A DNA stretch of 64,000 nt from Escherichia coli (GTDB lineage Bacteria > Pseudomonadota > Gammaproteobacteria > Enterobacterales > Enterobacteriaceae). Location: the NCBI RefSeq assembly GCF_009931435.1, contig NZ_CP043414.1; one strand, written 5' to 3'. The position numbers and the translations under genes are program-made. Shown piece after piece: positions 1 to 63,065 of the stretch. Positions within the stretch are counted from its first letter, which is position 1. Every line of letters begins with the position of its first letter. A model generated the notes under the pieces. The model had not been told where the DNA came from. It made no database searches and saw only the letters and a list, made by a program, of their open reading frames with translations.

Positions 1-798
<798 letters not shown>

Positions 799-937
799 AA
801 CGTGAGGAAATACCTGGATTTTTCCTGGTTATTTTGCCGCAGGTCAGCGTATCGTGAACATCTTTTCCAGTGTTCAGTATGGTGCCTTGCACGGTAATTA
901 TGTCACTGGTTATTAACCAATTTTTCTTGGGGGATAA

Positions 938-2077
938 ATGAGCGCGGGAAGCCCAAAATTCACCGTTCGCCGCATTGCGGCTTTGTCACTGGTTTCGCTA
1001 TGGCTGGCAGGCTGTTCTGACACTTCAAATCCACCGGCACCGGTCAGCTCCGTTAATGGCAATGCGTCTGCAAACACCAATTCTGGTATGTTGATTACGC
1101 CGCCGCCGAAAATGGGGACGACGTCTACAACGCAGCAACCGCAAATTCAGCCGGTACAGCAGCCACAAATTCAATCTGCACAACAACCGCAAATCCAGCC
1201 GGTGCAGCCAGTTGCTCAGCCGCCGGTACAGATGGAAAACGGACGCATCGTCTACAACCGTCAGTATGGGAACATTCCGAAAGGCAGTTATAGCGGCAGT
1301 ACATACACCGTGAAAAAAGGCGACACACTTTTCTATATCGCCTGGATTACTGGCAATGATTTCCGTGACCTTGCTCAGCGCAACAATATTCAGGCACCAT
1401 ACGCGCTGAATGTAGGTCAGACCTTACAGGTGGGTAATGCTTCCGGTACGCCAATCACTGGTGGAAATGCCATTACCCAGGCCGATGCAGCAGAGCAAGG
1501 AGTTGTGATCAAGCCTGCACAAAATTCCACCGTTGCTGTTGCGTCGCAACCGACAATTACGTATTCTGAGTCTTCGGGTGAACAGAGTGCTAACAAAATG
1601 TTGCCGAACAACAAGCCAACTGGGACCACGGTCACAGCGCCTGTAACGGTACCAACAGCAAGCACAACCGAGCCGACTGTCAGCAGTACATCAACCAGTG
1701 CGCCTATCTCCACCTGGCGCTGGCCGACTGAGGGCAAAGTGATCGAAACCTTTGGTGCTTCTGAGGGGGGTAACAAGGGGATTGATATCGCAGGCAGCAA
1801 AGGACAGGCAATTATCGCGACCGCAGATGGCCGCGTTGTTTATGCCGGTAACGCGCTGCGCGGCTACGGTAATCTGATTATCATCAAACATAATGATGAT
1901 TACCTGAGTGCCTACGCCCATAACGACACAATGCTGGTCCGGGAACAACAAGAAGTGAAGGCGGGGCAAAAAATAGCGACTATGGGTAGCACCGGAACCA
2001 GTTCAACACGCTTGCATTTTGAAATTCGTTACAAGGGGAAATCCGTAAACCCGCTGCGCTATTTGCCGCAGCGATAA
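938..2077 (+). CDS. nlpD: murein hydrolase activator lipoprotein NlpD (LysM + M23/LytM domains)
   Basis: 379-aa ORF with lipoprotein signal (LAGCS), Q/P-rich repeat region, C-terminal M23 peptidase-like domain; lies upstream of rpoS. Confidence 0.95.
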
Positions 2078-2139
2078 ATCGGCGGAACCAGGCTTTTGCT
2101 TGAATGTTCCGTCAAGGGATCACGGGTAGGAGCCACCTT

Positions 2140-3132
2140 ATGAGTCAGAATACGCTGAAAGTTCATGATTTAAATGAAGATGCGGAATTTGATGAGAACG
2201 GAGTTGAGGTTTTTGACGAAAAGGCCTTAGTAGAAGAGGAACCCAGTGATAACGATTTGGCCTAAGAGGAACTGTTATCGCAAGGGGCCACACAGCGTGT
2301 GTTGGACGCGACTCAGCTTTACCTTGGTGAGATTGGTTATTCACCACTGTTAACGGCCGAAGAAGAAGTTTATTTTGCGCGTCGCGCACTGCGAGGAGAT
2401 GTTGCCTCCCGCCGCCGGATGATCGAGAGTAACTTGCGTCTGGTGGTAAAAATTGCCCGCCGTTATGGCAATCGTGGTCTGGCTTTGCTGGATCTTATCG
2501 AAGAGGGCAACCTGGGGCTGATCCGCGCGGTAGAGAAGTTTGACCCGGAACGTGGTTTCCGCTTCTCAACATACGCAACCTGGTGGATTCGCCAGACGAT
2601 CGAACGGGCGATTATGAACCAAACCCGTACTATTCGTTTGCCGATTCACATCGTAAAGGAGCTGAACGTTTACCTGCGAACCGCACGTGAGTTGTCCCAT
2701 AAGCTGGACCACGAACCAAGTGCGGAAGAGATCGCAGAGCAGCTGGATAAGCCAGTTGATGACGTCAGCCGTATGCTTCGTCTTAACGAGCGCATTACCT
2801 CGGTAGACACCCCGCTGGGTGGAGATTCCGAAAAAGCGTTGCTGGACATCCTGGCCGATGAAAAAGAAAACGGCCCGGAAGATACCACGCAAGATGACGA
2901 TATGAAACAAAGCATCGTCAAATGGCTGTTCGAACTGAACGCCAAACAGCGTGAAGTGCTGGCACGTCGATTCGGTTTGCTGGGGTACGAAGCGGCAACA
3001 CTGGAAGATGTAGGTCGTGAAATTGGCCTCACCCGTGAACGTGTTCGCCAGATTCAGGTTGAAGGCCTGCGCCGTTTGCGCGAAATCCTGCAAACGCAGG
3101 GGCTGAATATCGAAGCGCTGTTCCGCGAATAA
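2140..3132 (+). pseudogene. rpoS: RNA polymerase sigma factor RpoS reading frame interrupted by an in-frame ochre codon (TAA at 2263-2265, codon 42); an in-frame GTG at 2299 opens a 277-codon ORF covering sigma regions 1.2-4
   Basis: ATG 2140 translates [41 protein letters not shown] then TAA; the ORF track only opens at 2299 in the same frame; the rest matches RpoS (…[15 protein letters not shown]…). Confidence 0.85.
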
Positions 3133-3148
3133 GTAAGCATCTGTCAGA

Positions 3149-3181
3149 AAGGCCAGTCTCTTATGAGGCTGGCCTTTTTCT
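3149..3181 (+). terminator. rho-independent terminator downstream of rpoS
   Basis: Inverted repeat aaaggccagtctc/ttatgaggctggccttt followed by a T-run. Confidence 0.7.
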
Positions 3182-3252
3182 TTTGTATGGGGAGTTGGTG
3201 TGTTTCGTCGCCTGGATAAGACACGTCAGCGTCCCATCCGGCAATCAACATC

Positions 3253-3660
3253 CTATTTGCTCATCATCTTGCGCACCAGCTGCATAAACAGCTCCTGCTC
3301 TTCTCCACTCAAACGCCCCAAAAATTCCTCATCCACACTGTCGCCAATCGGTATCGCCGCAGCAAGTACCTTTTCTCCTTCGGCAGTCAGCCAGACAAAG
3401 CGTCGCCGCTTATCAGCGGTGTCATGTTCACGTCTGACTAAGCCACGATTTTCCATTCTTGCCAACATTTCTGCCAGCGTTGCTTTGGTGCTGACGGCTG
3501 CTTCCATCAGTGCCACCTGTTCGATACCAGGTTTATCAGCAATGGCGCGCATCACCGCGTACTGTGGTTTGGTCAGGTCAGGTAACTCGTGCTGCCAGCG
3601 GGCCGTATGCTGCTGAAAAAGCTGTCGTAACTGATGGAACGCTTTATTTCGTAACGCCAT
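3253..3660 (-). CDS. hosA: MarR/SlyA-family transcriptional regulator (HosA-like)
   Basis: 135-aa ORF with winged-helix MarR-like sequence; sits divergently upstream of the UbiX/UbiD decarboxylase genes, the arrangement described for hosA in pathogenic E. coli. Confidence 0.65.
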   Translation of the reverse strand: MALRNKAFHQLRQLFQQHTARWQHELPDLTKPQYAVMRAIADKPGIEQVALMEAAVSTKATLAEMLARMENRGLVRREHDTADKRRRFVWLTAEGEKVLAAAIPIGDSVDEEFLGRLSGEEQELFMQLVRKMMSK

Positions 3661-3806
3661 GTAAACTCCGGGCTAATTCTCTGTCGCTATCATAGCGGTT
3701 TTTCAGTGACGAAGAAGATGTTGTTACTTTTCAATCCTTGCCGCTGTGGAAATGAAGGAGTATGTTAATAATAACGTTCGTATACGAACAATTAAGAGAG
3801 TAAGCA

Positions 3807-4400
3807 ATGAAACTGATCGTCGGGATGACAGGGGCTACCGGTGCGCCTCTTGGTGTGGCATTACTGCAAGCGTTGCGCGAAATGCCGGATGTCGAGACTC
3901 ATCTGGTGATGTCGAAGTGGGCGAAAACCACTATTGAACTGGAAACGCCTTACAGCGCTCGCGATGTTGCCGCCCTCGCTGACTTCAGCCATAACCCGGC
4001 GGATCAGGCTGCGACCATCTCTTCCGGCTCCTTTCGTACCGACGGCATGATCGTTATTCCATGCAGTATGAAAACGCTCGCCGGTATCCGCGCTGGTTAC
4101 GCCGATGGTCTCGTAGGGCGCGCGGCGGACGTCGTGCTCAAAGAAGGCCGCAAACTGGTGCTGGTGCCGCGTGAAATGCCGCTTAGCACCATCCATCTCG
4201 AAAATATGCTCGCACTTTCGCGCATGGGCGTGGCGATGGTGCCGCCGATGCCTGCCTTTTATAACCATCCCGAAACGGTAGATGACATTGTCCACCACGT
4301 GGTAGCCCGCGTGCTGGATCAATTTGGCCTCGAACATCCTCACGCCAGGCGCTGGCAAGGGTTGCCGCAGGCCCGGAATTTTTCTCAGGAGAATGAATAA
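3807..4400 (+). CDS. ecdB: UbiX/Pad1-family flavin prenyltransferase (decarboxylase subunit B)
   Basis: 197-aa ORF MKLIVGMTGATGAPLGV..., flavoprotein fold typical of UbiX/Pad1; stop overlaps the next start (ATGA), indicating an operon. Confidence 0.75.
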   Translation: MKLIVGMTGATGAPLGVALLQALREMPDVETHLVMSKWAKTTIELETPYSARDVAALADFSHNPADQAATISSGSFRTDGMIVIPCSMKTLAGIRAGYADGLVGRAADVVLKEGRKLVLVPREMPLSTIHLENMLALSRMGVAMVPPMPAFYNHPETVDDIVHHVVARVLDQFGLEHPHARRWQGLPQARNFSQENE

Positions 4401-5827
4401 TGGCATTTGATGATTTACGCAGCTTCTTACAGGCGCTTGATGACCACGGCCAGTTACTGAAAATCAGCGAAGAGGTGAACGCGGAACCGGATCTGGCAGC
4501 CGCTGCCAACGCCACCGGGCGTATCGGCGACGGCGCGCCCGCGCTGTGGTTTGATAATATTCGCGGCTTTATCGATGCCCGCGTTGCAATGAACACCATC
4601 GGTTCCTGGCAGAACCACGCAATTTCTCTCGGTCTGCCGCCAAACACCCCGGTTAAAAAACAGATTGATGAGTTTATCCGCCGCTGGGATAACTTCCCGA
4701 TAGCCCCGGAGCGCCGTGCGAATCCTGCCTGGGCGCAGAACACCGTCGATGGCGACGAGATCAATTTGTTCAATATCCTGCCGCTGTTTCGTTTAAACGA
4801 TGGCGATGGCGGTTTCTATCTCGACAAAGCGTGCGTGGTTTCCCGCGATCCGCTCGATCCGGATAACTTCGGCAAGCAGAACGTCGGCATCTATCGCATG
4901 GAAGTGAAGGGTAAGCGTAAGCTCGGCCTGCAACCGGTGCCGATGCACGATATCGCCCTGCATCTGCATAAAGCGGAAGAACGTGGTGAAGATTTGCCAA
5001 TTGCCATCACGCTGGGTAACGATCCGATCATCACCCTGATGGGCGCCACCCCGCTGAAATATGATCAATCGGAGTACGAAATGGCGGGCGCGCTACGCGA
5101 AAGCCCGTACCCGATCGCCACCGCCCCGCTGACCGGTTTTGATGTGCCGTGGGGTTCAGAAGTGATCCTCGAAGGGGTTATCGAAAGCCGCAAACGTGAA
5201 ATCGAAGGGCCGTTCGGTGAGTTTACCGGGCACTACTCCGGTGGGCGCAACATGACCGTAGTGCGCATCGATAAAGTCTCTTACCGCACCAAACCGATTT
5301 TTGAATCGCTCTATCTCGGCATGCCGTGGACCGAAATCGACTACCTGATGGGGCCTGCCACCTGCGTGCCGCTTTACCAGCAGTTGAAAGCCGAGTTCCC
5401 GGAAGTGCAGGCGGTGAACGCTATGTACACCCACGGCCTGCTGGCGATTATCTCCACCAAAAAACGCTATGGCGGCTTTGCCCGCGCAGTGGGCCTGCGT
5501 GCGATGACCACGCCGCACGGTCTGGGTTATGTGAAGATGGTGATTATGGTCGATGAAGACGTTGACCCGTTCAACCTGCCGCAGGTGATGTGGGCGCTCT
5601 CTTCGAAAGTGAACCCGGCAGGGGATCTGGTGCAGTTGCCGAATATGTCAGTACTGGAACTCGACCCTGGCTCAAGCCCGGCGGGGATCACCGACAAGCT
5701 GATTATCGACGCCACTACGCCTGTCGCCCCGGACAACCGTGGTCACTACAGCCAGCCGGTGGTGGACTTACCGGAAACCAAAGCCTGGGCTGAAAAACTG
5801 ACCGCTATGCTGGCCGCACGTAAATAA
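4400..5827 (+). CDS. ecdC: UbiD-family reversible hydroxyarylic-acid decarboxylase (subunit C)
   Basis: 475-aa ORF; UbiD-like length and sequence; directly follows the UbiX-like gene. Confidence 0.75.
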   Translation: MAFDDLRSFLQALDDHGQLLKISEEVNAEPDLAAAANATGRIGDGAPALWFDNIRGFIDARVAMNTIGSWQNHAISLGLPPNTPVKKQIDEFIRRWDNFPIAPERRANPAWAQNTVDGDEINLFNILPLFRLNDGDGGFYLDKACVVSRDPLDPDNFGKQNVGIYRMEVKGKRKLGLQPVPMHDIALHLHKAEERGEDLPIAITLGNDPIITLMGATPLKYDQSEYEMAGALRESPYPIATAPLTGFDVPWGSEVILEGVIESRKREIEGPFGEFTGHYSGGRNMTVVRIDKVSYRTKPIFESLYLGMPWTEIDYLMGPATCVPLYQQLKAEFPEVQAVNAMYTHGLLAIISTKKRYGGFARAVGLRAMTTPHGLGYVKMVIMVDEDVDPFNLPQVMWALSSKVNPAGDLVQLPNMSVLELDPGSSPAGITDKLIIDATTPVAPDNRGHYSQPVVDLPETKAWAEKLTAMLAARK

Positions 5828-5837
5828 GGAGAACAAG

Positions 5838-6074
5838 ATGATTTGTCCACGTTGTGCCGATGAACAGATTGAAGTGATGGCGAAATCGCCGGTAAAAGAT
5901 GTCTGGACGGTCTACCAGTGCCAGCATTGCCTTTATACATGGCGCGATACTGAACCGCTACGCCGCACCAGCCGCGAACATTATCCCGAAGCCTTCCGCA
6001 TGACGCAGAAAGATATTGATGACGCGCCGATGGTGCCGAGCATCCCGCCGCTGCTGGCGGAAGGTAAGCGCTAA
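5838..6074 (+). CDS. ecdD: small zinc-ribbon subunit D of hydroxyarylic-acid decarboxylase
   Basis: 78-aa ORF with CxxC…CxHC motif (MICPRCADEQ…YQCQHCLY), typical of KpdD/YclD-type subunits. Confidence 0.65.
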   Translation: MICPRCADEQIEVMAKSPVKDVWTVYQCQHCLYTWRDTEPLRRTSREHYPEAFRMTQKDIDDAPMVPSIPPLLAEGKR

Positions 6075-6075
6075 A

Positions 6076-6105
6076 TAAAAGGTCCGATGCCCATCGGACC
6101 TTTTT
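6076..6105. terminator. bidirectional rho-independent terminator between convergent ecdD and ygbN
   Basis: A-run, perfect hairpin ggtccgatg/catcggacc, T-run. Confidence 0.7.
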
Positions 6106-6112
6106 ATTAAGG

Positions 6113-7477
6113 TCAAATTACCGCCCATACGCACCAGGTAATTAAGAATCCGGTAAAACCGAGAATGGTCGTTAACACTGTCCAGGTTTTCAGACCGTCT
6201 GCTACCGACAACCCCAGATATTTGGTCACAATCCAGAACCCTGAGTCATTAATATGTGACGCGCCAAGCCCACCAAAGCAGGCTGCCAGCGTCACCAATA
6301 CGCACTGAATCGGATTCAATCCCATCACCGCTTCTGAGAGTAACCCGCCGGTTGTCAGGATTGCTACGGTTGCTGACCCCTGCGATGCACGCAGCGCCAG
6401 TGAAATAATAAATGCGGCTGGTAACAGAGGCAGGTCAATCATTTGTAGCATGTTGGCAAGGGCTTTGCCGACGCCCGATTCCACCAGCACTTTGCCAAAT
6501 ACCCCTCCAGCACCAGTAACCAAAATCACTACCGCCGCAGTGGGAAGGGCTGAGCCCATAATGTCGCTGGTGTGTTGTAAGCTCCAGCCGCGACGTAAAG
6601 CCAATAACCAGAATGCCAGCACCAGCGCAATCATTAGAGCTACCATTGGTGAGCCGATCAGCTGTAGCGTACCAAGCAGGGGATGCGAAGGCGGCATCAG
6701 TGTTGCGGAAACCGTACCCGCCATGATAATCGCGATAGGAATAACAATTAGCGAGGTGACCAGCGCGACGCCCGGTGGATTTATTTTATCGCTTAATTTT
6801 GTCGCGCCTTCCTCACTGGCCGGAGCCAGTTGCATCTGTTCCAGTACTTCCACCGACATCGCATATTGGCGCTTATTGATTATTTTCGCTGCAAAGTAGC
6901 CAACAATCCCTACGGGAATAGAAATCGCAATACCGATGATGGTTAGCCAGCCGATGTCTGCGTGGAGTAACCCCGCTGCGGCGACAGGGCCTGGATGCGG
7001 CGGTACCGCCACATGAACAGTTAGCATGATTCCAGCGACAGGCAGGCCAAATTTGAGTGGCGATATTTTGGCAACCTTGGCAAAACCGTAAATGATTGGC
7101 GCAAGAATAATAAAGCCGACATCAAAGAAGACGGGAATACCGAGGAAGAACGCTGCCAGAGTCAGCGCAGCGATAGTTCGTTTGTCACCTAACTTGCGAC
7201 TGAAATAATTAGCCAGTGACTCTGCACCACCAGAGTGTTCGATCATACGCCCCAGCATAGCGCCCAGACCAATAATAATAGTGACGGAACCAAGCACACC
7301 GCCCATCCCGGCGATCATCACTTTACCCACTTCGCCCGCCGGTATACCCGCCGCAAGTGCGACTAACAGGCTGACGAGGAGCAGAGCAACGAATGGTTGT
7401 ACCTTTGCCTTGATGACCAGCAGCAACAGCATGATTACGCCAGTTAACGCAATGCATAACAATGTAATTGTGGACAT
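6113..7477 (-). CDS. ygbN: GntP-family permease (putative L-threonate/D-erythronate transporter)
   Basis: 454-aa polytopic membrane ORF; GntP-like; conserved position next to ygbM. Confidence 0.85.
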   Translation of the reverse strand: MSTITLLCIALTGVIMLLLLVIKAKVQPFVALLLVSLLVALAAGIPAGEVGKVMIAGMGGVLGSVTIIIGLGAMLGRMIEHSGGAESLANYFSRKLGDKRTIAALTLAAFFLGIPVFFDVGFIILAPIIYGFAKVAKISPLKFGLPVAGIMLTVHVAVPPHPGPVAAAGLLHADIGWLTIIGIAISIPVGIVGYFAAKIINKRQYAMSVEVLEQMQLAPASEEGATKLSDKINPPGVALVTSLIVIPIAIIMAGTVSATLMPPSHPLLGTLQLIGSPMVALMIALVLAFWLLALRRGWSLQHTSDIMGSALPTAAVVILVTGAGGVFGKVLVESGVGKALANMLQMIDLPLLPAAFIISLALRASQGSATVAILTTGGLLSEAVMGLNPIQCVLVTLAACFGGLGASHINDSGFWIVTKYLGLSVADGLKTWTVLTTILGFTGFLITWCVWAVI

Positions 7478-7565
7478 GGGAAACCCTGTCTGAAAGTTAT
7501 AGTTAACCTACCCCATCCGTAGATGGGGGGATGTATGGGTACGTTGTAATTAGGGATTTAACGGA

Positions 7566-8342
7566 TTAGCGCCAGGCGTCAAACCAGCCAAGCCCTTCTT
7601 CGGTGAGGCCTCGAGGTTTATATTCACAACCGATCCAGCCCTGATATCCCACCTCATCGAACAGGCGGAACAGCCACGGATAGTTGATTTCTCCATCGTC
7701 CGGTTCATGTCGATCAGGTAGTCCGGCAATTTGTACGTGCGCATATTTCCCGGCGTAGTCGCGGATTAAATGCGTCAGGTTGCCATCTACTTTTTGCGCA
7801 TGGAAAGTATCTAGTTGAATAAACACGTTATCTCGCGCAACCTCTTCAACAATAGCCAGTGCCTGATACTGGCTGGAGAAGAGATAATGAGGCTTAACGC
7901 CGGGGCTGAGTGCTTCAACCAATATTCGCTTGCCGTGTGGCGCAAAGCGGTCGGCAGCGTAGCGGAGATTATCAATAAATACTGCCCGGTACCGTTCAGC
8001 ATCTTCGCCAGCGGGCACGACGCCTGCCATCACATGGACTTGTTCACAATTGAGCGCCAATGCATATTCCAGTGCCAGGTCGATGTCTGCGCGTGCTTCG
8101 TGCTCACGTCCAGGAAGGGCGGATAATCCCCATTCTCCCGCATTAATATCTCCGGGAGCGGTATTGAACAGCGCCAGTGTCAGATGGTTTTGCACCAGTT
8201 GCTTTTGGATTTGCAGGGGGGAGTAGTCATAGGGAAACAGAAATTCCACGGCATCAAACCCGGCTTTTCGCGCTGCGGCGAAGCGTTCAATAAAAGGCAC
8301 TTCGGTGAACATCATGGATAAATTAGCTGCAAAACGAGGCAT
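7566..8342 (-). CDS. ygbM: 2-oxo-tetronate isomerase (hydroxypyruvate-isomerase-like TIM barrel)
   Basis: 258-aa ORF, Hyi-family-like; ygbJKLM cluster. Confidence 0.85.
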
Positions 8343-8346
8343 TGCA

Positions 8347-8985
8347 TTAACTCCTTAATTCCGCAATTTCACCTGCGGTCAGATAACGGATCGGGCGGTC
8401 ACCGAGAATAAAAATCAGCTTTGCCGTTTCCTCCAGCTCTTCCATATTATTGGCGGCTTCTTGCAGGCTTTCACCGCAAACCACTGGGCCATGATTTGCC
8501 AGTAAAAAAGCCTGATTGTCTGCTGCCAGTTCCGCCAGATCCTGTGCGATGCGTTTATCGCCCGGTCGGTAATAAGGCACCAGCGGGATATTTCCCATCC
8601 GCATCACCACGTATGGTGTGAACGGACGAATAACGTTGCTGCTGTCCAGCCCTTGCAGGCAGGAAAGCGCCGTCGACCACGTACTGTGCAAATGCACCAC
8701 CGCTTTACAGCGCGGATTGTTGCGATACAGCGCCAGATGAAAGAGCACCTCTTTCGAGGGTTTGTCACCACTTAACCATTCGCCATCCGCGGTGACTTTG
8801 GAAAGCCGCTGCGGATCGAGATTGCCCAGGCATGAACCTGTCGGTGTCGCCAGTAAATTCCCGTCAGGTAAAAGCAGCGACAGATTGCCAGCCGAACCGG
8901 TTGCATAGCCGCGCTGAAAGAATGAACTGGCAATCCGCGTCATCTCCTCTCGCAAAGACTGCTCTACTTTTGCGAAATCGCTCAT
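8347..8985 (-). CDS. ygbL: class II aldolase/adducin-family 3-oxo-tetronate 4-phosphate decarboxylase
   Basis: 212-aa ORF; class II aldolase-like; cluster context. Confidence 0.85.
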
Positions 8986-10244
8986 GATAAAAACTCTCTT
9001 TGGGCTCGTGAAAAAAAGGCTTCATCACCGAAGTTGCCAGATTTAAGGGCGAGTGAGACAGGCTTATCCAGTGCGTTTACCCACGGCACGCCGGGGGAAA
9101 TGGTTGGGCCAATATGAAACCCTTTTATTCCCAGGCTCTGTGTGACTACGCCGGAGGTCTCACCGCCTGCGACAATAAAGCGTGTCACGCCTTCCGCTGC
9201 TAACCGCGCCGCTAGTTGAGAAAACAGTGTTTCTACTGCCTGACTGGCTTTTTGTGCACCGTATTGCTGTTGAATTGCTGCCAGTGCGTCAGTGCTGGCG
9301 GTGGCAAAAACCAGTGGAGCAAGTACACTTTCCTGGCCCAGAACCCACTCTGCCAGCTCGTGTGCATAAGCGGCCAGAGTTTCGGTTGAGAGGCAGCGTG
9401 CCACATCAACTTCACGGGCTGGTGCAATTTGACGGTAATGTGCTACCTGGCGGTTGGTCATTTGAGAGCATGAACCGGAGAGCACTACGCCGCGCCCAGC
9501 GAGCGGATGCCCTGCTTTGCGAGCCTGGTTACCGTTTTCTTGCGCCCACTGCCGGGCAAGGCCAATCGCCAGACCAGAACCGCCCGTTACCAGTGGGGCA
9601 TCGCGCAAGGCTTCTCCCTGAATTTCCAGATGGTGTTCGGTCAGCGCATCAAGCACCGCGTAGCGGTAGCCCTCTTGCTGTAAGCGAGCCAGCTCTTGAC
9701 GAACGGCATCCACACCTTGTTCGAAAATATGTGCCGAAACGACGCCGCAGCGCCCTGTGGATTGCGCTTCAACCAGACGGGGAAGATAGCTGTCGGTCAT
9801 GGGATTTACCGGGTGATGGCGCATCCCGGATTCGGCCAGCAGTTGATTCATTACGAACAAATACCCCTGATAAACCGTACGTCCGTTGACCGGCAGGGCC
9901 GGAGAGAAGACCGTAAACGGCGTGTCGAGAGCATCCATTAATGCATCGGTAACCGGGCCGATATTACCTTTCGCCGTACTGTCGAAAGTAGAGCAGTATT
10001 TGAAATAGATCTGTTTGCAACCTTGCTGTTGCAACCAGCTCAGAGCCGCCAGCGATTGCTGTGTGGCTTCAACCACCGGACAGGAACGCGTTTTCAGGCT
10101 GATCACCAGTGCGTCGATTGCTTCCGGCATTTTACCTGTTGGAACACCGTTAATTTGTACCGTTGGTAGACCGTTTTCCACCAGAAAACTGGCGATATCC
10201 GTCGCGCCGGTAAAATCATCAGCGATAACGCCAATCTTGATCAT
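8982..10244 (-). CDS. ygbK: four-carbon acid sugar kinase (3-oxo-tetronate kinase)
   Basis: 420-aa ORF; start overlaps ygbL stop; cluster context. Confidence 0.85.
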   Translation of the reverse strand: MIKIGVIADDFTGATDIASFLVENGLPTVQINGVPTGKMPEAIDALVISLKTRSCPVVEATQQSLAALSWLQQQGCKQIYFKYCSTFDSTAKGNIGPVTDALMDALDTPFTVFSPALPVNGRTVYQGYLFVMNQLLAESGMRHHPVNPMTDSYLPRLVEAQSTGRCGVVSAHIFEQGVDAVRQELARLQQEGYRYAVLDALTEHHLEIQGEALRDAPLVTGGSGLAIGLARQWAQENGNQARKAGHPLAGRGVVLSGSCSQMTNRQVAHYRQIAPAREVDVARCLSTETLAAYAHELAEWVLGQESVLAPLVFATASTDALAAIQQQYGAQKASQAVETLFSQLAARLAAEGVTRFIVAGGETSGVVTQSLGIKGFHIGPTISPGVPWVNALDKPVSLALKSGNFGDEAFFSRAQREFLS

Positions 10245-11149
10245 GATTTTGCTCCCGGTAGAGTGATGCCAGAGAAAATCTTGATAACTGCGCTATCGTC
10301 TTCTTTCCCGTAACCCGCGTTACTGGCGCTGGTGAACATATTCAATGCTGTTGAGGCCAATGGCAGCGGGAAGTGCAGGGCTTTGGCTGTATCGGCAACC
10401 AGACCAAGATCCTTAACAAAAATATCGACGGCTGAATGCGGGGTGTAATCGCCATCCACCACATGACGCATCCGGTTTTCGAACATCCAGGAATTTCCGG
10501 CGGCATTGGTCACGACGTCATACATCACATCCAGCGGGATCCCCGCACGGGCTGCAAGTGCCATCGCTTCGGCTCCGGCAGCAATATGTACGCCCGCTAA
10601 CAACTGGTGAATAATTTTTACGGTCGAACCTAGTCCCGGTTCTGCACCTATGCGATAAACTTTTCCGGCAACGGCTTCCAGCACGGGTGCCAGTCGTTCA
10701 AAGGCAATATCGCTACCGGAGGCCATGACAGTCATTTCACCGTTAGCGGCTTTTACTGCACCACCAGAAACTGGCGCATCCAGCATTTCCAGATCGAATC
10801 CAGCCAGAGCGGTAGCAATTTCTTGCGCATCAGCACTAGCGATAGTGGAAGAAACCATTACTGCCGTACCGGGTTTCAGATGTTGTGCAACGCCTGTTTC
10901 ACCAAACAGCACCTGTTTAACCTGGGCCGCATTGACCACCAGCACCAGCAGAGCGTCCAGTTTTTCGGCAAACGTCGCGGCGTTATCAGAAACCCCGCAA
11001 GCACCTGCCTCTTTCAACGTAGCGCAGGCATTGCTGTTTAGGTCTGCGCCCCAGGTAGAAAGACCTGCGCGGACACATGACAGTGCTGCTCCCATTCCCA
11101 TTGACCCTAAGCCAACGATACCGACATGAAACTCAGATCCCGTTTTCAT
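10241..11149 (-). CDS. ygbJ: NAD-dependent L-threonate dehydrogenase (3-hydroxyisobutyrate dehydrogenase family)
   Basis: 302-aa ORF with N-terminal Rossmann motif GIVGLGSMGMGAA. Confidence 0.85.
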   Translation of the reverse strand: MKTGSEFHVGIVGLGSMGMGAALSCVRAGLSTWGADLNSNACATLKEAGACGVSDNAATFAEKLDALLVLVVNAAQVKQVLFGETGVAQHLKPGTAVMVSSTIASADAQEIATALAGFDLEMLDAPVSGGAVKAANGEMTVMASGSDIAFERLAPVLEAVAGKVYRIGAEPGLGSTVKIIHQLLAGVHIAAGAEAMALAARAGIPLDVMYDVVTNAAGNSWMFENRMRHVVDGDYTPHSAVDIFVKDLGLVADTAKALHFPLPLASTALNMFTSASNAGYGKEDDSAVIKIFSGITLPGAKS

Positions 11150-11314
11150 CTGCTCTCCTTGTTAATTTAAGTGATATTTTGTTTGATAATGTGAATATAA
11201 GCGCTGGAAGATAACGATATGGTGAGCTGATTCACAAAAATTAACATTGTGTGTTATTTTATGTGAACTAAGCGTTAGTTGCGCCGCGCACGTTTCGCAG
11301 GCAAATAGCGTAGA

Positions 11315-12112
11315 ATGTCAGCAGGACAAAGGAAGGAGCAAAAGTTGATACCCGTAGAGCGTCGCCAAATCATCCTTGAGATGGTAGCTGAAAAAGGCAT
11401 TGTCAGTATTGCTGAACTAACGGACAGAATGAATGTGTCACATATGACCATTCGTCGGGATTTACAAAAACTGGAGCAGCAGGGAGCCGTTGTGCTGGTG
11501 TCCGGAGGCGTCCAGTCTCCGGGACGCGTGGCGCATGAACCTTCTCATCAGGTAAAAACTGCGCTGGCAATGACGCAAAAAGCGGCTATTGGCAAGCTGG
11601 CGGCAAGTCTTGTTCAGCCGGGAAGTTGTATCTATCTGGATGCGGGAACGACCACGCTAGCGATAGCACAGCATCTGATTCACATGGAGTCACTGACTGT
11701 GGTCACAAACGATTTCGTTATTGCGGACTACTTGCTCGACAACAGTAATTGCACAATTATTCACACTGGCGGTGCAGTGTGTCGGGAAAACCGTTCCTGT
11801 GTCGGGGAAGCCGCTGCGACCATGCTGCGCAGCCTGATGATTGATCAGGCTTTTATTTCTGCATCGTCATGGAGTGTGCGGGGGATTTCTACGCCAGCGG
11901 AAGATAAAGTCACGGTGAAACGGGCGATTGCCAGTGCCAGCCGCCAGCGAGTTTTGGTCTGTGATGCGACGAAATATGGTCAGGTGGCGACATGGCTGGC
12001 GTTACCATTAAGCGAGTTTGATCAGATTATTACAGACGACGGTTTACCGGAGAGTGCCAGTCGCGCGCTGGCGAAGCAGGATCTCTCTTTGCTGGTAGCG
12101 AAAAATGAATAA
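11315..12112 (+). CDS. ygbI: DeoR-family transcriptional regulator (start may be the TTG at 11345)
   Basis: N-terminal HTH (SIAELTDRMNVSHMTIRRDL) and DeoR-type sugar-binding C-terminus; divergent from ygbJ. Confidence 0.85.
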   Translation: MSAGQRKEQKLIPVERRQIILEMVAEKGIVSIAELTDRMNVSHMTIRRDLQKLEQQGAVVLVSGGVQSPGRVAHEPSHQVKTALAMTQKAAIGKLAASLVQPGSCIYLDAGTTTLAIAQHLIHMESLTVVTNDFVIADYLLDNSNCTIIHTGGAVCRENRSCVGEAAATMLRSLMIDQAFISASSWSVRGISTPAEDKVTVKRAIASASRQRVLVCDATKYGQVATWLALPLSEFDQIITDDGLPESASRALAKQDLSLLVAKNE

Positions 12113-12162
12113 TGGCCTGCAATAACACCGGGTTACTCATGCTTCACAGAAGAAGCATGAGA

Positions 12163-12819
12163 CTACTTTATTTTATAAAATGACAGCCGCCCGCTTTTCG
12201 GCGATCCGGTATCAATATAAATCTGGTTTGCGAACGTCTGGATGTTATCAAACATCATATGTCCGAAGATAAAGCAGTCGGCGCCGTTTATTTCCTGTAA
12301 CTCGCCTTTGAGCGATTTCAGTACGCGATCAACAGGCCAGAGTAATTCTCTCTCCGCTATTTCTTTGCCAAACTGATATTCAGCACCAGGATAATCAGCA
12401 TGTGCAATGACATATTTTATAATGTCGTTGGTAATTTCAATAATATGCGGAAGGTGATGGAATTTCAGCAACAGATCTATTGCCTCTTGTTGCTCTGAAT
12501 CATTTAAATCGAAAAACCAGTCACCACCGCTGGCAAGCCACATATTTCCATCGCCAGTTTCGAATGCCTCAAGCGCCATCGCTTCATGGTTGCCTTTAAC
12601 GGAGATAAACCAGGGCTGGTTTAACAGGCGTAGCACGTTAAGACTCTCCGGCCCACGATCAATATTATCGCCGACAGAAATAAGTAAGTCGGTTTCAGGA
12701 CAAAAAGATAATTGGTGCAGGCGGGATTGCAATAATTGATAATCTCCATGAATGTCACCTACCACCCAGATATGGCGATAATGAGTGGTTTCAATTTTAC
12801 GATAACGAATATCTGGCAT
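12163..12819 (-). CDS. pphB: serine/threonine protein phosphatase 2
   Basis: Metallophosphatase motifs GDIHGD, GDNIDRG, GNHE; start taken at MPDIRYRK, not the longer ORF-track start. Confidence 0.85.
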   Translation of the reverse strand: MPDIRYRKIETTHYRHIWVVGDIHGDYQLLQSRLHQLSFCPETDLLISVGDNIDRGPESLNVLRLLNQPWFISVKGNHEAMALEAFETGDGNMWLASGGDWFFDLNDSEQQEAIDLLLKFHHLPHIIEITNDIIKYVIAHADYPGAEYQFGKEIAERELLWPVDRVLKSLKGELQEINGADCFIFGHMMFDNIQTFANQIYIDTGSPKSGRLSFYKIK

Positions 12820-12841
12820 TGATCGCGCTCCGTAAAAAGAA

Positions 12842-13696
12842 TTATTCCGGCTTATGAAACAGAATGGTGTTAATCTCGACATCAGTGATTGCGCCAGCTG
12901 CTTCTGCTTTATGTAACCAGTATAGCGCTTTGTCTTTATCCACACCGTTCTCATCAATGCCCCAGGCGTAAATGCGGCCTAAGGATATTTGGGCATGAGG
13001 TAAATCTTGTGCGGCAGCTTTTTCAAACCAGTATTTAGCCTGTTTAATATCAGCGGGTACACCATCGCCCGTTAAAAAGAGCGTACCATAATTATACTGA
13101 CCAATTTTGTCGCCTTTTTCTGCGGCAAACTTAAGATATGTCGCAGCCTGGAGATAATTCTTTTCCTCGGCTGCGAGGAGCCCTAAATTAGCATGTGCAA
13201 TGGGGTTTCCCTTTTGCGCCGCTTTAACGAGCCAGGATTTTGCTTTATCGATATCATGGAACTTCTCTGGACCAAACTGATAGATATTGGCACAGTTTAT
13301 CTGTGCCTGAAGATTCCCCTGTCTGGCTGATTTCTCATACCAGTGAATGGCATTCTGGTAATCCGGCGGTGTGTCTTCATCTCCCTGATGATATAAAAGC
13401 CCGACATAAAATTGCGCAATGTCATCTCCCTGACTGGCTGCCAGATTAAACCAGTAAAATGCTTTATCGCGGTTTTTAACCCCCGTTACCCCTTCCTGGT
13501 AAACAATTCCCAATCCTTTTTGCGCAGATTTATCGCCGCCTTGTGCCCTTGCGATGATATTTTTCAGGTTTTCCTGTTTGTTTTTAGAATAACGTTGTTC
13601 AGCCTGGATAAGATCATCAAGCGAGGGTTCTTTGGCACAATAACCTGTTAGAGGAAAATGCAAAATTAGTAGAGTAAATAAAATTAACTTTTTCAT
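12842..13696 (-). CDS. secreted Sel1-like repeat (SLR/TPR-like) protein
   Basis: Signal peptide MKKLILFTLLILHFPLTGYCA followed by about seven repeats of the Sel1 pattern (A-x-Y-x-L-G-x-x-Y-x-x-G…D-x-x-K-A-x-x-W…A-A-x-Q-G); no K-12 gene lies between mutS and pphB in my recollection. Confidence 0.75.
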   Translation of the reverse strand: MKKLILFTLLILHFPLTGYCAKEPSLDDLIQAEQRYSKNKQENLKNIIARAQGGDKSAQKGLGIVYQEGVTGVKNRDKAFYWFNLAASQGDDIAQFYVGLLYHQGDEDTPPDYQNAIHWYEKSARQGNLQAQINCANIYQFGPEKFHDIDKAKSWLVKAAQKGNPIAHANLGLLAAEEKNYLQAATYLKFAAEKGDKIGQYNYGTLFLTGDGVPADIKQAKYWFEKAAAQDLPHAQISLGRIYAWGIDENGVDKDKALYWLHKAEAAGAITDVEINTILFHKPE

Positions 13697-13770
13697 ACAT
13701 TCCATGAATTAATTGTTGAGTCCTGATTTTAATTATACTCCATCTGTTATTGAGCCAATAATAATTAATA

Positions 13771-13797
13771 ATCCCCGATGGGAAGGCCATCGGGGAT
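13771..13797 (-). terminator. hairpin downstream of mutS (terminator/attenuator)
   Basis: Perfect 11-bp stem atccccgatgg/ccatcggggat followed on the minus strand by an AT-rich tract. Confidence 0.5.
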
Positions 13798-13804
13798 TAT
13801 GCCA

Positions 13805-16366
13805 TTACAGCAAACTCTTCAAGCGGTAAATCCACTCCAGCGCCTGACGCGGGGTAAGTGAATCCGGGTCGAGATTTTCCAGTGCTTCGACCGCTGGCGA
13901 GGTTTCTTCCGGTACTGACAGCAAAGACATTTGCGTACCATCCACTTGCGTAGCGGCGGCGTTCGGCGAAATGCTTTCCAGTTCACGCAGTTTTTGCCGT
14001 GCGCGCTTAATCACCTCTTTTGGCACGCCCGCCAGAGCAGCAACCGCCAGGCCGTAGCTTTTGCTCGCCGCGCCATCCTGCACACTGTGCATAAAGGCAA
14101 TGGTATCGCCGTGCTCCAGCGCATCAAGATGCACGTTGGCGACGCCTTCCATTTTCTCCGGCAGTTGAGTCAGTTCAAAGTAGTGGGTAGCAAACAACGT
14201 CAACGCTTTAATCTTATTCGCCAGATTTTCAGCGCACGCCCATGCCAGCGACAGACCATCGTAAGTGGACGTTCCGCGCCCAATCTCATCCATCAACACC
14301 AGGCTGTACTCCGTGGCGTTATGCAGAATATTAGCGGTTTCGGTCATCTCCACCATAAAGGTTGAACGCCCGGATGCCAGATCGTCAGCCGCGCCCACAC
14401 GGGTAAAGATACGGTCAATCGGGCCAATCTCGACTTTTTGCGCCGGTACGTAGCTGCCGATATAGGCCATCAGCGCAATCAGTGCAGTCTGGCGCATATA
14501 GGTACTTTTACCGCCCATGTTCGGACCGGTGATGATCAACATGCGACGCTGCGGCGACAGGTTCAGCGGGTTAGCGATAAACGGCTCATTCAGTACCTGT
14601 TCAACCACCGGATGGCGACCTTCGGTAATGCGAATGCCCGGTTTATCAATGAAGGTCGGGCAGGTGTAGTTCAGGGTATAGGCCCGTTCCGCCAGGTTCA
14701 CCAGTACGTCGAGTTCTGCCAGTGCGCTCGCGCTCTGTTGCAACGCCTCCAGATGCGGCAACAGCAGGTCGAACAACTCTTCATAAAGCTGTTTTTCGAG
14801 TGCCAGTGCTTTACCTTTCGAGGTGAGTACTTTGTCTTCATACTCTTTTAGCTCTGGAATAATGTAGCGTTCGGCGTTTTTCAGCGTCTGACGACGCATA
14901 TAGTTGATGGGTGCCAGATGGCTTTGTCCACGGCTGATCTGAATGTAATAACCATGCACCGCGTTAAAGCCGACTTTCAGCGTGTCCAGGCCGGTACGTT
15001 CACGCTCGCGAACTTCCAGACGCTCCAGATAATCTGTCGCGCCGTCAGCCAGCGCTCGCCACTCATCCAGCTCTTCGTTATAGCCTGATGCGATAACACC
15101 ACCGTCGCGTACCAGCACCGGCGGTGTGTCGATGATTGCTCGCTCCAGCAGATCGCGCAGCTCGGCAAACTCGCCCATTTTCTCACGCAGCGCCTGTACC
15201 GGTGCACTATCGACACTTTCTAACTGCGCGCGTAGTTCTGGCAGTTGCTGGAAAGCGTGACGCATACGGGCCAGATCGCGTGGGCGAGCAGTCCGTAAAG
15301 CCAGACGTGCCAGAATACGTTCCAGGTCGCCGACCTGACGCAGTACCGGCTGCAGCTCAGCGGTGAAATCCTGCAATGCGCCAATAGTTTGCTGGCGCTC
15401 AAGCAACACGCGGGTATCGCGCACTGGCATATGCAGCCAGCGTTTCAGCATTCGACTCCCCATCGGCGTTACAGTGCAGTCGAGCACGGAAGCCAGCGTG
15501 TTTTCCGCACCGCCCGCCAGGTTCTGGGTAATTTCCAGGTTACGACGCGTCGCGGCATCCATAATGATGCTGTCCTGCTCACGTTCCATAGTGATAGAAC
15601 GAATATGCGGCAGTGTCGTACGTTGCGTATCTTTCGCATACTGCAACAGACAACCGGCGGCACAAAGTCCGCGCGGCGCGTTCTCGACGCCAAAACCGAC
15701 CAGATCGCGAGTGCCAAATTGTAGATTCAACTGCTGGCGCGCGGTGTCGATTTCAAACTCCCACAGCGGACGACGGCGCAAGCCGCGACGACCTTCAATC
15801 AGCGACATTTCAGCAAAATCTTCTGCATACAGCAGTTCCGCCGGATTAGTGCGTTGCAGTTCTGCCGCCATCGTTTCGCGGTCAGCCGGTTCACTCAGGC
15901 GAAAACGACCAGAACTGATATCCAGCGTCGCATAGCCGAATCCTTTGCTGTCCTGCCAGATAGCAGCCAGCAGGTTGTCCTGACGTTCCTGCAATAGCGC
16001 TTCATCGCTGATGGTGCCCGGCGTAACGATACGCACAACTTTGCGCTCGACCGGCCCTTTGCTGGTCGCCGGATCGCCAATCTGTTCACAAATAGCAACG
16101 GACTCGCCCTGATTCACCAGTTTGGCGAGATAGTTTTCCACCGCATGGTAGGGAATCCCCGCCATCGGGATCGGCTCTCCCGCTGAAGCGCCGCGTTTGG
16201 TCAGTGAAATATCCAGCAGTTGTGACGCACGTTTTGCGTCGTCATAAAACAGTTCGTAAAAGTCACCCATCCGGTAGAACAGCAGGATCTCGGGATGCTG
16301 GGCTTTCAGCTTGAGATACTGCTGCATCATTGGCGTATGGGCGTCAAAATTTTCTATTGCACTCAT
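13805..16366 (-). CDS. mutS: DNA mismatch repair protein MutS
   Basis: 853-aa ORF with Walker [10 protein letters not shown] and full MutS architecture. Confidence 0.97.
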
Positions 16367-16652
16367 GGGGTTATGTCCGGTTCCCTGATATTAAATGGGG
16401 TGTGATGGTTTTTATTTTCGTTGTAATCACATAAGGCGCACATGATACCGGAGTTAATCATTTCAGGGGAAGAAGCGAACGGCGAGTTCTTGATGGTGAT
16501 TCCGGGAAAGATGCTGTTTTGCAGCTTTTGCGTGATGCTTATGAAGCAAGTACGCAAAATTGTATCAGTTGGCGAACCCTTCTTCTTCAGAGCCATAGTC
16601 CCCTTTCAAATTAAGTTGTAATATAAATACATCTTAATGAGGTGGAGGCAGC

Positions 16653-17006
16653 ATGTCCGGCAAGCGTATCTCTCGTGAAAAATTGACGATTAAAAAAATG
16701 ATCGATCTTTATCAAGCGAAATGCCCGCAGGCGTCAGCGGAGCCGGCGCATTACGAGGCATTGTTTGCTTATGCGCAAAAACGGCTGGATAAATGTGTGT
16801 TCGGCGAAGACAAACCCGCCTGTAAGCAGTGTCCGGTGCACTGTTACCAGTCTGCAAAGCGTGAAGAGATGAAACAGATTATGCGTTGGGCCGGGCCGCG
16901 CATGCTGTGGCGTCATCCGATCCTAACCGTACGCCATCTCATTGATGACAAGCGTCCGGTGCCGGAGTTGCCAGAAAAATATCGCCCGAAAAAACCTCGT
17001 GAATAG
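16653..17006 (+). CDS. ygbA: YgbA (nitrosative-stress-induced protein)
   Basis: 117-aa ORF between mutS and fhlA, the conserved position. Confidence 0.8.
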   Translation: MSGKRISREKLTIKKMIDLYQAKCPQASAEPAHYEALFAYAQKRLDKCVFGEDKPACKQCPVHCYQSAKREEMKQIMRWAGPRMLWRHPILTVRHLIDDKRPVPELPEKYRPKKPRE

Positions 17007-61248: not shown

Positions 61249-62361
61249 TTACCTGTCAGTCACCCGATATTCCACGCTATGTGCTTCATCAGGTTGAGGA
61301 ACTTCCAGCCTTGAGGCCATCCGCATCACGACCGCTTCAGGAACGGCATACTCGCGCCTGGCATTTTGCTGCTTCCATTGCGCCCACGGTACTTCCAGAT
61401 AAACGATTTTTACTCGTGCACCGTAAGCCGTAAACAGACTGATGAGCTGGCTACGCAACTGGCGGGTAATGTTCGTTGCATTCCAGATGAACGGCTTCTT
61501 CTGGCGTAAAAAAACGCGCGCTTCTTCTTTTGCCTGTTGCACAATACGCCCGGTGGCGGTTTTGTCGTCCGGACTGGCATTGATTCGCCGCCGCATATCA
61601 TCAAGGCTGATAACGTTCACTCTCTGGCACTGTTCACTGATAAAGCGATCTTTGCCCATACCCGGTAAACCACACAGCAAAATAACCTCAAAAGATTCAG
61701 CCTCCCAGGGAACAAAATCAGGAGAACTTTGTTCATGGGTCAGGTAATGCCAGCGTGCGGAATCCGAAGCGAATGAACGCACTTTTCCCCAGCATTGTTG
61801 CTCCTGGCAAAATAGCTTGAACAGATCGATGCGTTCCAGCATTGATTGCTGATCATGACAATGGCGACCAAGCAGATCGGCACGAGCAAGCAAAGCGAGC
61901 AGACGCGTGTCGATACGCATTGCAGCCGTGAGCAGCAAACGCTCCGGTTCCGGACGTTCCAGTAACCATAGCGGTAACCCATGCAGACGCACCAGTGCAA
62001 CAATTTGCTCGCGTAGCACGAACGGTGTCGGGATATCGCGCCATAAAATTTGTCGGGCCGTCAATTCACCCCGACGAGCATGACCAGGGGACTGAATACG
62101 TCCGTTTTCCTGCACGGTAGTACTGCGCTTTTCAACGTCATGCAATAACGCCGCCGCCCATAAAATTTCCTGCTGCTGAGCGGGGAGTTGCTGAAACTCA
62201 GCCATCGCAACGAGTGCGTTCAGCACCATTTCAGTATGCACACCAACGTCGCCTTCACCATGATGCTCCGGGTCTTGCGGCGTGTTATGCATATCCTCAA
62301 CCCAGCTAAAACGCTGGCGTAGCGTCGACCAGCGTTTGTCGTCGGTAAGTTGCCAAATCAT
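61249..62361 (-). CDS. HD-domain phosphoesterase fused to a P-loop polynucleotide-kinase-like domain (HD-Pnk-type end-healing enzyme)
   Basis: 370-aa ORF; N-terminal HD signature (…[12 protein letters not shown]… and …AALLHDVEK…); C-terminal P-loop …[15 protein letters not shown]… followed by …[10 protein letters not shown]…; start overlaps the ligase stop (ATGA). Absent from the K-12 luxS-emrB junction. Confidence 0.7.
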
Positions 62362-63065
62362 GACTGTTCTCCATAAGCGAACTCATGGGCCATCCGCGCC
62401 CGTCGCCAGTGGCGTTTCCAGTGCTCGGTGGTTTTGACATGATTTTTGCGTACATACTTGAAGACGTTATGCGAAAAGTCAGCGACGGAAAACGCATCAC
62501 TATTCCGGCTGACAATGCCTTCCAGCGTACAGGGTTGCCCGGTTTGCGTATCCCAGGGATCGAACGCGCCGCGCGCATTGGTCAGCGCCAGAAAATCACG
62601 TTGCCAGCTTTTTTCATCATTCCCCGGCTGCGGGCCGGAGATTTCGGGAACGCAGGGGAAATCAAACAGAGCGGCGTAAAACTGCACCTCTTCCCAGCTC
62701 AGCCACATATCCTGGCAGCGAACGGCAAACAGATAAAAATCCTGCTCCAGGGCGCGATATTCAATCGAATGAACGGCATAAAGATTTTCACCAAACAACT
62801 CCAGATCGCCGAGATCGTTTTTCAGCGATTGCCAGCGTTGGCGAATTTTATAGGTCCATGCCGATTCCGTTGGCGCGGCATGGGAACGGGCAAACACGCC
62901 GAAGCGATTAAGACAGTTATTTTCGCCGTCGAGTTTTTCAGTATGTACCAACTGCGAAATTGCCTGCATATCTTGCCAGTAACTGGCGTTAATGCGGTCA
63001 TCGCTGGTGGTGCCAGGGGAGAAGGGATAATGCCAGGTTCTCCCGTATTTACGTTGGATAATCAT
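62358..63065 (-). CDS. minimal ATP-dependent polynucleotide (RNA/DNA) ligase, nucleotidyltransferase domain only
   Basis: 235-aa ORF with covalent nucleotidyltransferase motifs: motif [10 protein letters not shown] (KxDG lysine), motif [12 protein letters not shown], motif [10 protein letters not shown], motif V FKYVRK. Confidence 0.7.

Follow-up and report, generated by a model that had tools for sequence, protein, structure and literature searches.

A probable HosA-controlled hydroxyarylic-acid decarboxylase operon between rpoS and ygbN in Escherichia coli

Operons for the non-oxidative decarboxylation of hydroxyarylic acids appear across papers as ecdBCD, kpdBCD and vdcBCD, with pad1-yclC-yclD as an older set of names. 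Here we describe a cassette of this kind, consisting of the regulator gene hosA and the operon vdcBCD, in a stretch of 64,000 nucleotides from the Escherichia coli contig NZ_CP043414.1 (hereafter the window). We put the probability that this unit is a HosA-controlled hydroxyarylic-acid decarboxylase (HAD) operon at about 95%. The cassette, its regulator, ligand, operator and structures, and its placement beside rpoS are already published. Recombinant EcdCD from strain O157:H7 decarboxylates 4-hydroxybenzoate (4-HBA) and vanillate, and the reverse carboxylation has also been demonstrated (PMC6644310, Table 2). Abstracts on UbiX-family flavin prenyltransferases describe them as the enzyme type that supplies prenylated flavin mononucleotide (prFMN). 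On its own, VdcC has essentially no activity; it strictly requires VdcD, an allosteric activator that binds it tightly and supports the ERE loops (PMC8379154). The regulator HosA is released from its operator DNA by 4-HBA, with a dissociation constant (KD) of ~4.7 uM (PMC6261655). In strain UMN026, according to the summary of a 2024 preprint, HosA represses both the HAD operon and its own gene, and 4-HBA induces the operon (bioRxiv 10.1101/2024.04.24.590444).

The chromosomal setting has likewise been described. In the "pattern IV" arrangement, typified by enteropathogenic E. coli (EPEC) E2348/69, rpoS and o454 (ygbN) are separated by slyA/hosA and kpdBCD, and the ygb cluster is retained; this pattern is scattered over non-B2 phylogroups, in clinical and faecal isolates alike (Ewers et al. 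2014, PMC4209514). As cited there, the EPEC-type o454-nlpD region was traced to Herbelin et al. 2000.

The cassette and its enzyme subunits

All four cassette genes are intact in the six-frame list of open reading frames (ORFs). Together with the elements that border them, they are arranged as follows.

3146–3179, plus strand: predicted intrinsic terminator hairpin of rpoS, at the left edge of the 2.9-kb indel; a 15-bp stem and then a T-run (folding energy -25.1 kcal/mol, z -5.0)
3180–6073: indel segment, present in the window and represented by 8 bp (CTGTGCAC) in K-12, as shown by aligning the rpoS-ygbN spacer of K-12 with the window
3253–3660, minus strand: hosA, 135 amino acids, MarR-family repressor that would sense 4-HBA
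3661–3806: divergent hosA-vdcB control region, a 146-bp spacer between the two start codons
3807–4400, plus strand: vdcB/ecdB (pad1), 197 amino acids, UbiX-type flavin prenyltransferase that would make prFMN
4400–5827, plus strand: vdcC/ecdC (yclC), 475 amino acids, UbiD-type catalytic subunit, predicted to depend on prFMN
5838–6074, plus strand: vdcD/ecdD (yclD), 78 amino acids, small zinc-ribbon subunit, predicted activator
6077–6105: predicted bidirectional terminator hairpin common to vdcD and the convergent ygbN (-17.7 kcal/mol on the plus strand and -17.3 kcal/mol on the minus strand; z -5.5 and -4.6)
6113–7477, convergent to vdcBCD: ygbN, followed by ygbM, ygbL, ygbK, ygbJ, ygbI, pphB, a 287-amino-acid ORF and mutS

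The segment at 3180–6073 is the classical "2.9-kb" mutS-rpoS segment (Ewers et al. 2014, PMC4209514). K-12 retains the rpoS terminator as far as GGCCTTTT, after which come CTGTGCAC and then the ygbN terminator; the hairpin at 6077–6105 is identical there and is placed so as to terminate both vdcD and ygbN. When complete E. coli genomes were searched, K-12-type genomes aligned with the two ends of the query only. A reading of this DNA made from the sequence alone (the sequence-only reading) had placed the cassette between the rpoS terminator and ygbN, had called it absent from K-12 and had recognized a three-gene operon with an overlapping B/C junction, and all of this holds. At that junction, GAATAATGG, the final A of the vdcB stop codon is also the A of the vdcC ATG (TAATG, position 4400), and a GGAG Shine-Dalgarno sequence stands ahead of vdcD. 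The range given in that reading, 3200–6110, was sound except for its start, 3200 being that of a spurious ORF antisense to hosA. An Rfam scan of positions 1–17000 of the window matched no RNA family.

Using the curated NCBIfam cut-offs as family thresholds, we found that each of the three enzyme subunits scored above the cut-off of its model. VdcB reached 312.6 bits on NF041206 (cut-off 290) and 245.8 bits on TIGR00421 (cut-off 108.9), matched the Pfam family Flavoprotein (PF02441, 3e-44) and aligned with the O157:H7 Pad1 structure, PDB 1SBZ, with an expect value (E) of 8e-129. VdcC scored 788.4 bits on NF041204 (cut-off 650), matched all of UbiD_N, UbiD and UbiD_C (PF20695, PF01977 and PF20696) and aligned end to end with Sedimentibacter VdcC (ShVdcC; PDB 7AE4, E 6.5e-160). 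Within this alignment, the motifs N161-VGIY-R166 and E269-GPFG-E274, which hold the catalytic Glu-Arg-Glu (ERE) residues and the Asn that binds metal and cofactor, fell on the same motifs in ShVdcC. We take these catalytic and cofactor residues to have their counterparts in Fdc1. The ERE motif is important in UbiD-type VdcC (PMC8379154). Finally, VdcD scored 121.2 bits on NF041205 (cut-off 30) and matched the partner chain 7AE4_a with an E of 3e-11; its cysteines 3, 6, 28 and 31 form two CXXC knuckles, and the zinc ligands of ShVdcD lie at the same four cysteine positions (PMC8379154). UbiX-like, UbiD-like and zinc-ribbon subunits had all been proposed from the sequence, with a lack of UbiX/UbiD similarity on profile search named beforehand as the result that could overturn the proposal; the similarity was found, far beyond chance.

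Comparison with the O157:H7 cassette, to which the locus had been likened, gave 94–95% identity for the DNA and 99–100% for the enzyme proteins (VdcB 99.0%, VdcC 99.4% and VdcD 100%). On the strength of this near-identity to experimentally studied orthologues, VdcB would prenylate reduced flavin mononucleotide to prFMN, and VdcC, kept active by VdcD, would use prFMN to convert 4-HBA to phenol and vanillate to guaiacol in a reversible reaction. VdcB makes the same cofactor as UbiX, both enzymes fall in the same superfamilies as the UbiX/UbiD pair, and VdcC also aligns with UbiD of E. coli in PDB 2IDB and 5M1C (E ~4e-47), all of which would suit a spare UbiX/UbiD pair for ubiquinone biosynthesis that acts on 3-polyprenyl-4-hydroxybenzoate. 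However, VdcC scored 174 bits on the UbiD equivalog NF008175 (cut-off 788), as against 788 on the VdcC model (cut-off 650), and the operon encodes a VdcD subunit, whereas true UbiD uses none (PMC8379154). Moreover, the regulator answers to free 4-HBA (PMC6261655), and 56% of E. coli genomes, K-12 among them, do not have the cassette. We therefore regard a role in ubiquinone biosynthesis as very improbable.

The same comparisons bear on whether the HAD operon might encode a protocatechuate (AroY-type) or gallate (LpdBCD-type) decarboxylase and not a 4-HBA/vanillate enzyme. The match of VdcC to 7AE4 is far closer than its matches to AroY-type structures, which range from E 1e-27 to 7e-25 and accord with the membership of all these aromatic acid decarboxylases in the UbiD family. 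In addition, VdcC scored over the cut-off of its own model, the 99.4%-identical orthologue from O157:H7 has 4-HBA and vanillate as accepted substrates (PMC6644310), and VdcD is without sequence similarity to LpdD (PMC8379154). It would be a considerable surprise if protocatechuate or gallate proved to be the substrate, and we retain the assignment to 4-HBA and vanillate.

HosA and the control region

The divergent regulator, assigned in the sequence-only reading to the MarR/SlyA family, is HosA itself. The protein matched Pfam MarR (PF01047, 1e-12) and PDB 8AGA, the "Transcriptional regulator HosA" of EPEC, with an E of 2e-82 and 130 of 134 residues identical; six further PDB entries also matched. 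SlyA, the name that older annotation gave to the hosA gene, was rejected, as the protein scored 27.3 bits on the SlyA equivalog NF002926, under the cut-off of 120. Two elements in the control region are relevant to its action.

3776–3789: HosA operator GTTCGTATACGAAC, 14 bp long and perfectly palindromic, 17 bp ahead of the vdcB start codon
3738–3766, plus strand: candidate vdcB promoter, TTGCCG, a 17-nucleotide spacer and TATGTT; a weak match picked by eye

The palindrome GTTCGTATACGAAC has one exact match in the window, where 0.08 would be expected by chance. An inverted-repeat search gave only an offset palindrome; a pattern search located the exact operator. In published HosA binding-site oligonucleotides, GTTCGTATACGAAC is flanked just as in the window, by TAATAATAAC...AATTAAGAGA (Cao et al. 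2018, PMC6261655 supplement). In UMN026, as the preprint summary has it, transcription starts upstream of the palindrome (bioRxiv 10.1101/2024.04.24.590444). The putative promoter at 3738–3766 would place the start of transcription just before the operator, in agreement with the published position of the site. By analogy with its studied orthologues, a HosA dimer bound to the palindrome just upstream of vdcB would block transcription of the operon and, as the literature indicates, HosA would also repress hosA; binding of 4-HBA would then free HosA from the DNA.

Three points weigh against this account of the locus. HosA carries 8 differences in 135 residues relative to O157:H7 (94.1% identity) and 4 in 134 relative to EPEC. 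A scan of positions 3100–6200 for the sigma-70 consensus found no strong promoter. Finally, and speculatively, a nonsense codon in rpoS, described below, could alter the stationary-phase expression of neighbouring genes. We found no evidence that contradicts the assignment as a HAD operon.

Prevalence, divergence and ancestry

Counting the cassette as present where at least 80% of its length was covered, we found it in 2380 of 5426 complete E. coli genomes; in these the RefSeq annotation shows hosA and the three enzyme genes as well, and the remaining genomes are without the cassette. The sequence-only reading had associated it with pathogenic E. coli and Klebsiella; for Klebsiella (kpdBCD) the likeness is taken from the literature. 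It is indeed present in O157:H7, but a restriction to pathogens does not stand, as the carriers include isolates from water, food and healthy animals. The vdcC/D-ygbN junction, in which the cassette is combined with the ygb cluster, was found in 1604 genomes (~30%), which leaves ~776 of the O157-type form, with the cassette abutting pphB. In the window the order is rpoS, hosA, vdcBCD and ygbN-ygbI, which is the order that defines pattern IV. The co-occurrence of the cassette with the K-12-type ygbI-N cluster had been noted beforehand and is seen in the ORF list; the "composite type" to which it was ascribed is real but not unusual, being this published pattern. As a published and frequent variant, the locus has little significance beyond its correct annotation.

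The DNA around the cassette is distinctive. From 13.8 to 38 kb the backbone of the window is ~95.3% identical to typical E. coli and reaches 99% identity or more with only 11 genomes; from 40 to 64 kb it is 96–96.7% identical to typical E. coli, and no complete genome exceeds 98.5%. With an identity of only ~95–97% to mainstream E. coli, the window comes from a divergent, deep-branching Escherichia lineage, possibly one of the cryptic Escherichia clades. The cassette allele is also rare, with identity of at least 99% in no more than 38 of the 5426 genomes; one of these, strain 2013C-4282, has the same layout of cassette and ygb genes. Given the ~5% DNA divergence from the common allele, we considered import of the cassette from another genus and rejected it, since the backbone of the window stands just as far from mainstream E. 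coli.

Relative to O157:H7, the ratio of nonsynonymous to synonymous divergence (dN/dS) was 0.029 for vdcB, 0.014 for vdcC, 0 for vdcD and 0.18 for hosA. These values are low despite a DNA difference of 5–6%, indicating that the genes are kept by purifying selection. That a divergent Escherichia lineage retains the operon under such strong selection argues that the handling of phenolic acids is useful well beyond pathogens. In the same comparison, dS was 0.15–0.27 for the cassette and 0.28 for mutS.

These values speak to the age of the arrangement. If hosA-vdcBCD had been inserted recently into a K-12-type region, long residence would not be expected, yet the dS of the cassette is like that of mutS, as long residence would give. 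Neither an insertion sequence (IS) element nor an integrase, tRNA or flanking direct repeat was found at the cassette junctions. It is instead the ygb block that appears recently imported (dS 0.01–0.05 from K-12), and the nearest relative by backbone carries the cassette but no ygb genes. On the other side are the clean 2.9-kb indel relative to K-12, a guanine-plus-cytosine (GC) content of 55–58% inside the cassette as compared to ~51–53% in its flanks, and the argument for horizontal acquisition made in the preprint (bioRxiv 10.1101/2024.04.24.590444). Overall, we consider recent insertion unlikely and favor an old arrangement that deletions and recombination have since reshaped.

Divergence from K-12 was uneven along the locus. 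For ygbN, ygbM, ygbL, ygbJ and ygbI, dS was 0.011–0.046. By comparison, it was 0.076–0.084 for rpoS and nlpD, 0.29 for mutS and 0.46 for pphB (88.6% nucleotide identity). With flanks about ten-fold more diverged than the near-K-12-like ygbN-ygbI block, the locus would be an ancestry mosaic, and the sharp ancestry break near 12.1 kb (6113–12112 compared to 12163–16366) points to a recombination junction. Among sequenced genomes, those most closely related to the lineage have the ygb-less O157-type arrangement; in 2020CK-00188, the nearest by backbone, the order is cassette, pphB, a Sel1-repeat gene and mutS, with no ygb genes. A contiguous ygbI-pphB-Sel1-mutS segment like that in the window was found in none of the 5426 complete genomes, nor was the overall combination of rare cassette allele, K-12-like ygb, divergent pphB, Sel1-repeat gene and divergent mutS. 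We give roughly even odds to the locus being a fresh recombinant, in which a deep-branching Escherichia lineage received K-12-like ygbN-ygbI from mainstream E. coli by introgression. A mosaic produced by homologous recombination is the simplest reading; it fits the long-known behavior of the region, with no new phenomenon, and would make this one more clear case of mosaic ancestry in the mutS-rpoS recombination hot spot.

The cassette of 2020CK-00188 showed a further discontinuity. Its hosA is 100% identical to that of the window, but DNA identity drops to 93.5% over 4001–5200, and 9 of the last ~20 residues of its VdcB differ (E176K, H177Y, P178D, H179K and others, window residue first; ~4330–4400). 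The drop in identity and the changes at the 3' end of vdcB, beside an identical hosA, indicate a second recombination break inside the cassette.

Other features of the window and relation to described systems

The remaining features comprise three genes to the left of the cassette, from the six-frame ORF list, and two inserts to its right.

172–798: pcm
938–2077: nlpD
2140–3132: rpoS
12842–13705, minus strand: gene for a Sel1/TPR-repeat protein of ~285–287 amino acids between pphB and mutS; low GC content of 40–44%
61249–63065, minus strand: two-gene insert between luxS and emrB, encoding proteins of 370 and 235 amino acids

In rpoS, codon 42 (2263–2265) reads TAA, in frame, in place of the GAA (E42) of K-12 and all close relatives, and the ORF is split into a stub of 41 codons and a remainder of 277 codons. 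It looks like a typical allele for loss or attenuation of rpoS. Among the nearest complete genomes (99.4–99.8% identical), rpoS is mostly intact, and the E42 nonsense codon therefore appears to be specific to this strain; in 2020CK-00188 the gene is frameshifted. This makes the strain a probable nonsense mutant of rpoS, a point relevant to anyone phenotyping it.

The Sel1-repeat protein has a putative N-terminal signal peptide, judged by eye. Its gene is missing from K-12, O157:H7 and 2013C-4282; among complete E. coli genomes only 11 carry it, with 96.8% identity, and identity bands give an estimate of up to ~180 others with an allele of 79% identity. We also came upon a 9.3-kb public contig, RKCM01000024.1, labeled as a metagenome-assembled genome (MAG) ("MAG: Oscillospiraceae bacterium UBG124"). 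It consists of E. coli ygbJ/ygbI-pphB-mutS DNA, shares 96.5% identity with the window across 2 kb, has no Sel1 gene and is evidently a mis-binned E. coli contaminant. In the luxS-emrB insert, a region of the query that most E. coli genomes do not cover, the 370-amino-acid protein has an AAA_33 P-loop kinase domain and a weak HD-domain match below the Pfam cut-off, and the 235-amino-acid protein belongs to an RNA ligase family. The two genes look like an RNA-repair pair; neither protein matched the PADLOC defence models.

Among described systems, the EPEC E2348/69-type pattern IV region has the same gene layout as the window and shares its junction with the 1604 genomes counted above. The window differs from it in its rarer cassette allele and in the Sel1-repeat gene between pphB and mutS, a combination seen in 0 of 5426 genomes. 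The VdcCD/BsdBCD enzymes of Sedimentibacter hydroxybenzoicus and Bacillus subtilis (7AE4, 7AE5 and 7AE7) resemble the present one in a C subunit that aligns end to end and in the same four zinc cysteines in D, but they are more distant, come from Firmicutes and are regulated differently. HosA of E. coli UMN026 and EPEC is a near-identical protein; its palindromic operator is the same, and its gene stands divergently beside the HAD operon, as in the window; relative to the EPEC structure 8AGA, the differences are M52I, T81A, G119A and S134N, window residue first. Finally, EcdB, EcdC, EcdD and HosA of O157:H7 are encoded by the same four genes in the same order, with the same spacing, B/C overlap and left junction after the rpoS terminator. 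The DNA of that cassette is nevertheless only ~94–95% identical to that of the window, and the right-hand neighbors differ: in O157:H7 ygbI-N is missing and the cassette abuts pphB, whereas in the window ygbN-ygbI comes next.

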